A stretch of 64,000 bases of DNA from Thermoguttaceae bacterium. Its GTDB lineage: Bacteria > Planctomycetota > Planctomycetia > Pirellulales > Thermoguttaceae. Below are positions 20,442-22,139 of this stretch, one piece after another. The stretch lies in the NCBI GenBank assembly GCA_045586185.1, contig JAZMZV010000246.1, positions 10,945-74,944 of the forward strand, in the 5' to 3' direction. The position numbers and the translations under genes were made by a program. Numbering within the stretch: the first letter of the stretch is position 1; each line of letters begins with the position of its first letter. A model generated the notes under the pieces. The model did no database searches. It was not told where the DNA came from and was given only the letters and a program-made list of their open reading frames with translations.

Positions 20442-22139
<1,698 letters not shown>

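Follow-up and report, generated by a model that had tools for sequence, protein, structure and literature searches.

We found that the short hairpin TTCGCC-loop-GGCGAA, present at five array elements in a 64,000-nt stretch of a Thermoguttaceae genome (the window), belongs to a repeat family of high copy number, and we hold with moderate confidence that it is a genus-specific mini-hairpin from a repeat family of the REP/TIR type that is linked with a Y1 transposase. Judged from the sequences, its main home is best read as the ~65-nt inverted ends of a small HUH/Y1 element encoding a 152-aa protein, together with gene-less doublets of such ends, and in the array copies it is the tip of a long imperfect palindrome with heptamer-array arms. 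The family is best read as a selfish repeat of the known REP/transposase kind, not as a new kind of system. The host genome (G000; 4.72 Mb in 277 contigs, 49% GC) represents a rumen-dwelling lineage, the relatives of a window protein at 85–96% identity being rumen or gut MAGs labelled Thermoguttaceae or planctomycete; with relatives among rumen Thermoguttaceae MAGs, a cyanobacterial STRR/SDR origin of the repeats was dropped. Comparisons were made across nine genomes of the genus (G000–G008), all of them incomplete MAGs, and with 32 other genera.

A reading of the window made from its letters alone (the sequence-only reading) had placed one palindrome at five loci, and all five were found to carry the hairpin; there were no others in the window. 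The invariant core was the 6-bp stem TTCGCC/GGCGAA, and the 8-bp form with AATT was present at three of the five, the exact 8-bp pattern occurring twice in the window compared with 0.00 times in shuffles. Two orientations of the array elements were distinguished: form A runs G-arm, 3 nt, hairpin, 7–8 nt AT-rich spacer (TTTAAAA) and C-arm, and form B is its reverse complement. The hairpin at 20508–20526, AATTCGCC-GGA-GGCGAATT, has the full 8-bp stem and is in form A on the plus strand, with a 3-nt spacer on its 5′ side and a 7–8 nt AT-rich spacer on its 3′ side; its G-arm is (TAGGGAA)×4.4 at 20476–20506 (plus strand, from TRF and the sequence) and its C-arm (CTACTGC)×4.3 at 20533–20562 (plus). 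A promoter match at 20404–20431 lies just upstream of this element (20476–20562), so the element is probably inside a transcript. In the region 19000–34000 of the window, sigma-70-like promoter matches numbered 31, compared with 11.4 in shuffles.

At 29337–29356 the hairpin is a variant, AATTCGGCC-TTC-GGCGAATT, whose 5′ arm is longer by one G, in form A on the plus strand between (AATAGGG)×2.7 at 29317–29335 and (CTACTCC)×4.9 at 29363–29396 (both plus). The third copy, AATTCGCC-GTA-GGCGAATT at 32010–32028, again has the full 8-bp stem and is in form B on the plus strand, which makes it form A on the sense strand of its two flanking minus-strand genes; its arms are (AGGGAGT)×2.3 at 31988–32003 and (CTATTCC)×6.3 at 32030–32076 (both plus). 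The remaining two are in form A: ATTCGCC-TTC-GGCGAAT with a 7-bp stem at 53873–53889, after (AGGCAGT)×5.3 at 53834–53870 (plus), and TTCGCC-TTC-GGCGAA with a 6-bp stem at 60188–60202, between (TAGGCAG)×4.4 at 60154–60184 and (CTCCTCA)×4.4 at 60208–60238 (both plus). The description of a hairpin held between a G-arm and a C-arm therefore stood for the G-rich array, which precedes all five copies, but the C-rich array follows only four, the copy at 53873 having no adjacent C-arm.

When the core was counted as TTCGCC-N1-8-GGCGAA, the host genome contained 207 copies, compared with 2 for the control in which the pattern was read backwards. The sequence-only reading had staked its case on further copies existing in the genome, and the scan supplied about 200. 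The hairpin thus has the character of REP-type sequences, that is, a short palindromic extragenic repeat of high copy number, and the array elements that bear it sit in intergenic spacers. About 50 of the 207 copies are flanked by G-rich and C-rich heptamer arrays, and these carry 3-nt loops only. Some 130 others are part of U, a structured unit of ~65 nt that is missing from the window and of which the host genome has 263. The parts of U are a conserved head of 20 nt, a small variable hairpin (hp1), a conserved 12-nt linker, an optional second hairpin position (hp2, the TTCGCC hairpin; units with it are called U+hp) and a C(C)AAAAC tail. Among 234 parsed units, hp2 was present in 107 and lacking in 113, and in 32 units hp1 was TTCGC-GNA-GCGAA, with GNA on the G-rich strand in every one. 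Copies in the array context and in the U context have just 12 stem bases in common, and their flanks differ. Seven hybrid elements were also found in which U+hp is joined directly to heptamer arrays.

The statement that stems are conserved while loops vary was borne out: in the U context 129 of 150 stems were exact. Conservation extends beyond pairing to the stem sequence itself, and compensatory or wobble variants were few (TTTGCC/GGCAAA, TCCGCC/GGCGGA and TTCGTC/GACGAA). Such conservation points to sequence-specific recognition or recent spread. The loops also followed a rule, reading GNA or GNNA on one strand. Forty of 45 array elements carried their GNA loop on the form B strand; the rule was broken by four GGA loops, one of them the copy at 20508, and by one TTC loop. 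Most hp2 loops of U fit as well. GNA is the sole triloop class that gives a very stable DNA mini-hairpin, with GNNA-type tetraloops as a further class (PMC13037366), and loops of these kinds with a C-G closing pair were found at the level of sequence in the 40 of 45 array elements and in all 32 hp1 hairpins. The tetraloops here are mostly not of the GNRA kind, which together with the GNA/GNNA loops favours a hairpin acting as DNA. The likeness to UUCG noted by the sequence-only reading is superficial, TTC being merely the complement of GAA on the strand that reads GNA. A cUUCGg tetraloop was rejected, as the C(UUCG)G register mispairs C5 with C12 and breaks the conserved stem. Taken together, the loop sequences favour the stable DNA mini-hairpin type and not UUCG. 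In sequence they resemble the described DNA mini-hairpins GCGNAGC and GCGNNAGC (PMC13037366) in having a C-GNA-G or C-GNNA-G loop with a C-G closing pair, but the stem here is 6–8 bp long. The related sequence CCGAAGG is present in an ssDNA initiation signal recognised by a primase (PMC13037366).

Heptamer arrays are themselves widespread in the genome (515 by strict and 1211 by relaxed counting), and arm types can be mixed around the same centre. Centre and arms are nevertheless not independent, as the sequence-only reading had implied. Among 58 array pairs with AGGSART/CTAYTSC arms, 29 enclosed the exact hairpin and ~9 more a decayed one (about 38 of 58), and the CGCAAGCG or CGCAAAGCG centre goes mainly with GCGAGTT and GTGGTTA arms, indicating that arms and centre together make coherent element families. 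The two strands of an array element fold differently, the arms pairing by G-T/G-U on the form B strand and by A-C mismatches on the form A strand. The form B strand folds better (mean −46.0 versus −39.3 kcal/mol) and was the more stable in 31 of 38 elements (p = 1e-5). GTAG or ATAG terminates the G-arm, 3 nt (form A) or 7–8 nt (form B) from the stem. In GTAG-tagged REPs an unpaired GTAG stands at one end of the palindrome (PMC3733652); here GTAG/ATAG is part of the repeated arm unit.

The sequence-only reading had proposed a search for Y1 or RAYT genes, and the host genome proved to contain eight PF01797 (Y1-family) genes. Two are ordinary IS200/IS605 TnpA genes, and three score above or close to the threshold of the RAYT model, each with its own flanking repeats. 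The cut-off of NF047646 (REP_Tyr_transpos, 80 bits) was passed by the genes at L007, L008 and L004. Those at L007 (contig C261) and L008 (contig C87) are 185-aa RAYT genes above the NCBIfam cut-off, flanked by a GC-rich palindrome of their own. No TTCGCC hairpin lay within 3 kb of any of the eight host Y1 genes. A further homologue in the host genome, of 153 aa, lies beside ispF at a syntenic site and is 59% identical to the 152-aa protein described below; behind it lie U units in tandem that are free of the hairpin. It scored 31.8 bits against PF01797, above the cut-off of 23, and fell below the NCBIfam cut-offs (35.9 bits versus 80 for NF047646; 27 versus 55 for NF033573, IS200). At this locus (L005, C90:19665–22961) the gene is followed by three tandem U-variant units of ~80 nt and, further on, by an Mrr-like restriction-domain gene and inverted U units, a layout that is syntenic in G001 and G006.

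The hairpin itself was found at the ends of a transposase-bearing element in three congeners. In G005 (L026) a 152-aa homologue is enclosed in a discrete element with inverted U+hp ends on both sides, the upstream U+hp end having a GGAAC loop and the inverted hp+U end downstream a TTC loop. The 152-aa gene of G001 (L067) has the same layout, and in G002 (L069) U+hp ends lie upstream beside the gene, the other side being cut by the contig start. Homology between the G005 and G001 loci was restricted to the 800-bp element, indicating a discrete unit at different loci. The 152-aa PF01797 protein has a readable HUH motif and C-terminal Tyr motif, and relatives of the G005 protein are annotated with PF01797. 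A PDB sequence search with the protein gave no relevant match, and an AlphaFold2 model built without an alignment had a pLDDT of 41. The ~65-nt inverted repeats at the element ends depart from the IS200/IS605 pattern of subterminal hairpins without terminal inverted repeats. The occurrence of the hairpin-flanked subfamily at non-homologous loci in G005 and G001 likewise departs from the single-copy, vertically inherited state of RAYT genes; among the 152/153-aa gene groups only the hairpin-less subfamily beside ispF is syntenic. The element does have the features of a TIRtron/TIRYT, namely a Y1 gene within long TIRs that also form a dispersed family of singles, dimers and clusters. RAYT-type genes with long TIRs forming moderately abundant families of this sort have been described (PMC3733652), and the present arrangement matches the ‘TIRtron’ of that description.

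The host genome also contains ~12 asymmetric gene-less doublets of ~170 nt, made of a type-a and a type-b end that match the two ends of the full element. These resemble what is expected for deletion derivatives, and may be likened to REPINs or MITEs. As inverted doublets (U+hp … hp+U′) they have the structure of a REPIN, whereas the array elements have a single hairpin between inverted arms. We infer that a Y1 enzyme would bind this hairpin, with the array-centre copies as substrates. The hairpin would fold on single-stranded DNA with its C-GNA-G loop, the enzyme would recognise it through the fixed stem sequence, and cleavage and rejoining beside it could mobilise, duplicate or recombine the modules on either side; slippage might alter arm length, and recombination between the inverted arms might flip the centre. 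The proposal that the centre is a module recognised by a REP/Y1-type protein gained real support from the inverted ends that bracket the 152-aa gene in three congeners, from the fixed stem and from the eight Y1 genes of the host genome. The host assembly has no copy of the hairpin-flanked transposase subfamily.

The distribution across genomes was examined next to that of the genes. Eight of the nine genomes of the genus had 98–312 copies of the hairpin and 116–326 of U, and the ninth (G008) had 2 hairpins, no U, few arrays and no RAYT-like match. REP_Tyr_transpos-like genes numbered 3–9 in each of the eight repeat-rich genomes and 0 in G008, so that the hairpin, U, the arrays and RAYT-like genes are found together in eight of the nine. 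In the 32 other genera hairpin and U were at background. The 152/153-aa gene was found in five of the eight repeat-rich genomes (incomplete MAGs), and the hairpin-flanked subfamily in three of the eight. A 153-aa family gene was not found in the assemblies of G003, G004 and G007 (87–95% complete), each of which has more than 100 hairpins; these three hairpin-rich genomes, together with the absence of the hairpin-flanked subfamily from the host assembly, count against the Y1 reading, as do the distance of over 3 kb between the hairpins and every host Y1 gene, the unlike flanks of the array and U copies and the protein scores below the NCBIfam cut-offs. A search of viral contigs for U+hp gave no match, and a metagenome scan returned 2 contigs only. 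One genome of another family of the order (G036) has its own amplified hairpin, TTCGCC-TGAAA-GGCGAA, in ~25 copies, which may be an independent family sharing the stem.

Comparison of orthologous spacers between congeners revealed rapid turnover. The element at 29337, form A in the host genome, is flipped to form B in G003, and other element families occupy the site in G001, G004 and G005. At 32010 the same element is present in G003 with four G-arm units compared with two in the host genome, other families are present in G001, G002 and G005, and G006 and G007 have no element. At 53873 the whole 190-nt spacer (53830–54018), which separates convergent genes, is inverted in G007, and G003 has a U-hairpin doublet instead. 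In the G007 inversion the GGCAGTA/TACTGCC arrays stay at the outside, and the rearrangement points to recombination between inverted heptamer arrays. The site at 60188 is form A in the host genome and G007, and form B with a different C-arm in G003 and G004. Turnover also affects nested structures: at 58626–58765 the GGCAATAG/CTATTCC outer arms hold a GTGGTTA-armed palindrome in the host genome, and in G003 the same outer arms surround a simple TTCGCT-TTC-GGCGAA hairpin. Since orthologous spacers were replaced wholesale and without clean interruption, no simple insertion boundaries could be derived. At 28431–28466 and 30324–30343, G003 has ~138-nt heptamer elements with a second-class centre where the host genome has 18–32 nt; these look like filled versus empty sites in genomes that are ~91% identical.

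The array elements were also oriented with respect to genes. Of 27 elements with co-directional neighbours, 21 had form A, in which TTTAAAA follows the hairpin, on the sense strand (p = 0.006), a bias that a purely selfish model does not predict without added selection. Orientation had no relation to local GC skew, and a link to replication was rejected. A preference for gene 3′ ends was also rejected, the distribution over spacer types being that of the background. The G-arms begin a median of 3 nt past stop codons. Directly behind stops the G-rich strand of the arms is the sense strand, and directly ahead of starts it is the antisense strand, a polarity equivalent to the rule of G-arm then C-arm. 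The frequent flipping, set beside the sense bias of form A, leads us to infer that sense transcripts are under selection to avoid the more stable fold of form B; the array elements might also play a positive part as RNA. The orientation bias, its independence of GC skew and the position of the G-arms after stops would also suit an element used by the host in its transcripts, in which the GC hairpin with UUUAAAA served as a weak terminator, a pause site or 3′-end protection and the arms tuned the structure. REPs elsewhere have been proposed as RNA elements (PMC3733652), and most spacers keep some palindromic element though the family differs between species. Against this, an intrinsic terminator was rejected: no hairpin fits the tested pattern of a GC-rich stem followed by a T-run (at least five T in eight), the tail being TTTAAAA, and terminator sites were not enriched (19 versus 21.8 expected). 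Array elements were as frequent between divergent genes as expected from the background (7 of 37, chi-square p = 0.33), orientation flips between orthologous sites of close relatives, the window gave 0 matches to Rfam families at the gathering score, and the fixed stem with its mostly non-GNRA loops suits recognition of DNA better than of RNA. We therefore regard a transcript element as unlikely to be the main explanation.

The hairpin might instead be a passive passenger without a dedicated protein, spread by ectopic recombination or gene conversion through shared arms and by template switching, the likeness to the U ends reflecting one past capture. Arms common to hundreds of loci, mixed arm types around one centre, the whole-spacer inversion between the host genome and G007, the tie between centre type and arm family, and the three hairpin-rich genomes in which the 153-aa gene was not found are all in keeping with this. 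It leaves unexplained, however, the near-invariant stem in two unrelated contexts, the strand-specific GNA/GNNA loops and the wholesale swap of element families at the same site, and we consider it rather improbable. More improbable by far is an invertible switch, in which the inverted heptamer arms recombine, flip the asymmetric centre and so alter the structure of the sense transcript and the expression of the neighbours. Of four hairpin sites compared among congeners, three showed flips, and the two strands differ in folding, but the flips were seen in comparisons between species, no recombinase is linked with the elements and no promoter was identified in the centre. A more speculative extension of the transposase reading, to which we give little credence, makes the mini-hairpin (15 nt, fixed stem) the exchangeable unit itself: as the site of breakage and joining by a small HUH/Y1 transposase, it might shuffle heptamer arrays, U units and other REPs into the remodelled mosaic palindromes that fill most spacers.

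The reading as a Y1-linked REP/TIR family agrees in many respects with REP/REPIN-RAYT systems and TIRtrons (PMC3116915, PMC3337134, PMC3733652). Common features are an extragenic hairpin that is short and present hundreds of times, inverted doublets that probably make up the unit, an HUH/Y1 gene bracketed by repeats (here in G005 and G001), TIR families present as singles, dimers and clusters, and several RAYT-like genes per genome, each with its own repeat. Unlike in REP/REPIN-RAYT systems, the hairpin here is just 15–19 nt long, makes up a single module of a bigger mosaic end and also stands alone at the tip of heptamer-array palindromes, the flanked gene is at different loci in each species, as in an IS, and is below the RAYT model cut-off, and the GTAG tag is found only within the arm unit. 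With IS200/IS605 elements (TnpA Y1, subterminal hairpins) the system shares a PF01797 protein of ~150 aa, hairpins near the ends that can fold on one strand and have the same stem with different loops, and distinct left and right ends. It differs in its long inverted repeats, in the lack of tnpB, in a gene copy number of 1–3 and in a score below the NF033573 cut-off. In Nostoc, the small dispersed repeats SDR4-6 are reportedly nested in larger repeats; they likewise are very small hairpin modules at precise positions inside other repeats, present or absent among similar hosts, but they belong to another phylum and have another sequence, and here there is a candidate transposase-bearing parent element. 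The polar G-rich heptamer repeats known as STRR (Rehm et al. 2015, PMC4692102) are also G-rich on the sense strand after stops and on the antisense strand before starts, but conserved hairpin centres and a link to a transposase are not described there. Polar heptamer arrays are known from Xanthomonas and Nostoc, and now also from Planctomycetota. If the link to the transposase is true, the 152-aa enzyme and its 15-nt hairpin would form a compact and tractable pair for the study of ssDNA-hairpin recognition by HUH transposases, and would help to show in what way the mosaic palindromes of most spacers are put together from REP-like modules and tandem heptamer arrays. In practice, the elements break rumen MAG assemblies and alignments exactly at gene boundaries, and their flips and swaps provide fast strain-level markers.

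The second class of centres, recognised by the sequence-only reading through a CTTGCGT-type core, turned out to be real and larger than the window suggested, with ~343 copies of CGCTTGCG / CGCAAGCG, and also CGCAAAGCG, within 50 nt of a heptamer array genome-wide. In the window a CGCTTGCG core lies between (GAGTTGC)n and (CTACTGC)n at 22173–22184, a relaxed core CTCTTGCG at 47054–47065, and a further centre at 58681–58693 inside GTGGTTA arms nested in the GGCAATAG/CTATTCC outer arms. Relaxed forms are present at 45137–45150 (GCGTTTGCGT, upstream of (CTCGCAA)n and conserved in G003) and at 61738–61750 (ACGCCTGCGT); at the latter site G003 and G004 have hairpin-less AT-rich centres (GTAG-AGG-TTTTTAAA-CTATTGCC). 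The palindrome that flanks the RAYT gene at L007 is preceded by GAGCGCTTGCGTC, which is similar to this class. The CGCTTGCG core at 36676–36698 (minus strand) is fused with a GCGACCAACGGGAG motif and belongs to a different REP-like unit, which likewise flanks the RAYT-like gene of contig C208 (L003). Inverted copies of a unit made of the GCGACCAACGGGAG motif and a GC-rich palindrome, as at that locus, were found in the window at 36624–36690 and 48515–48585.
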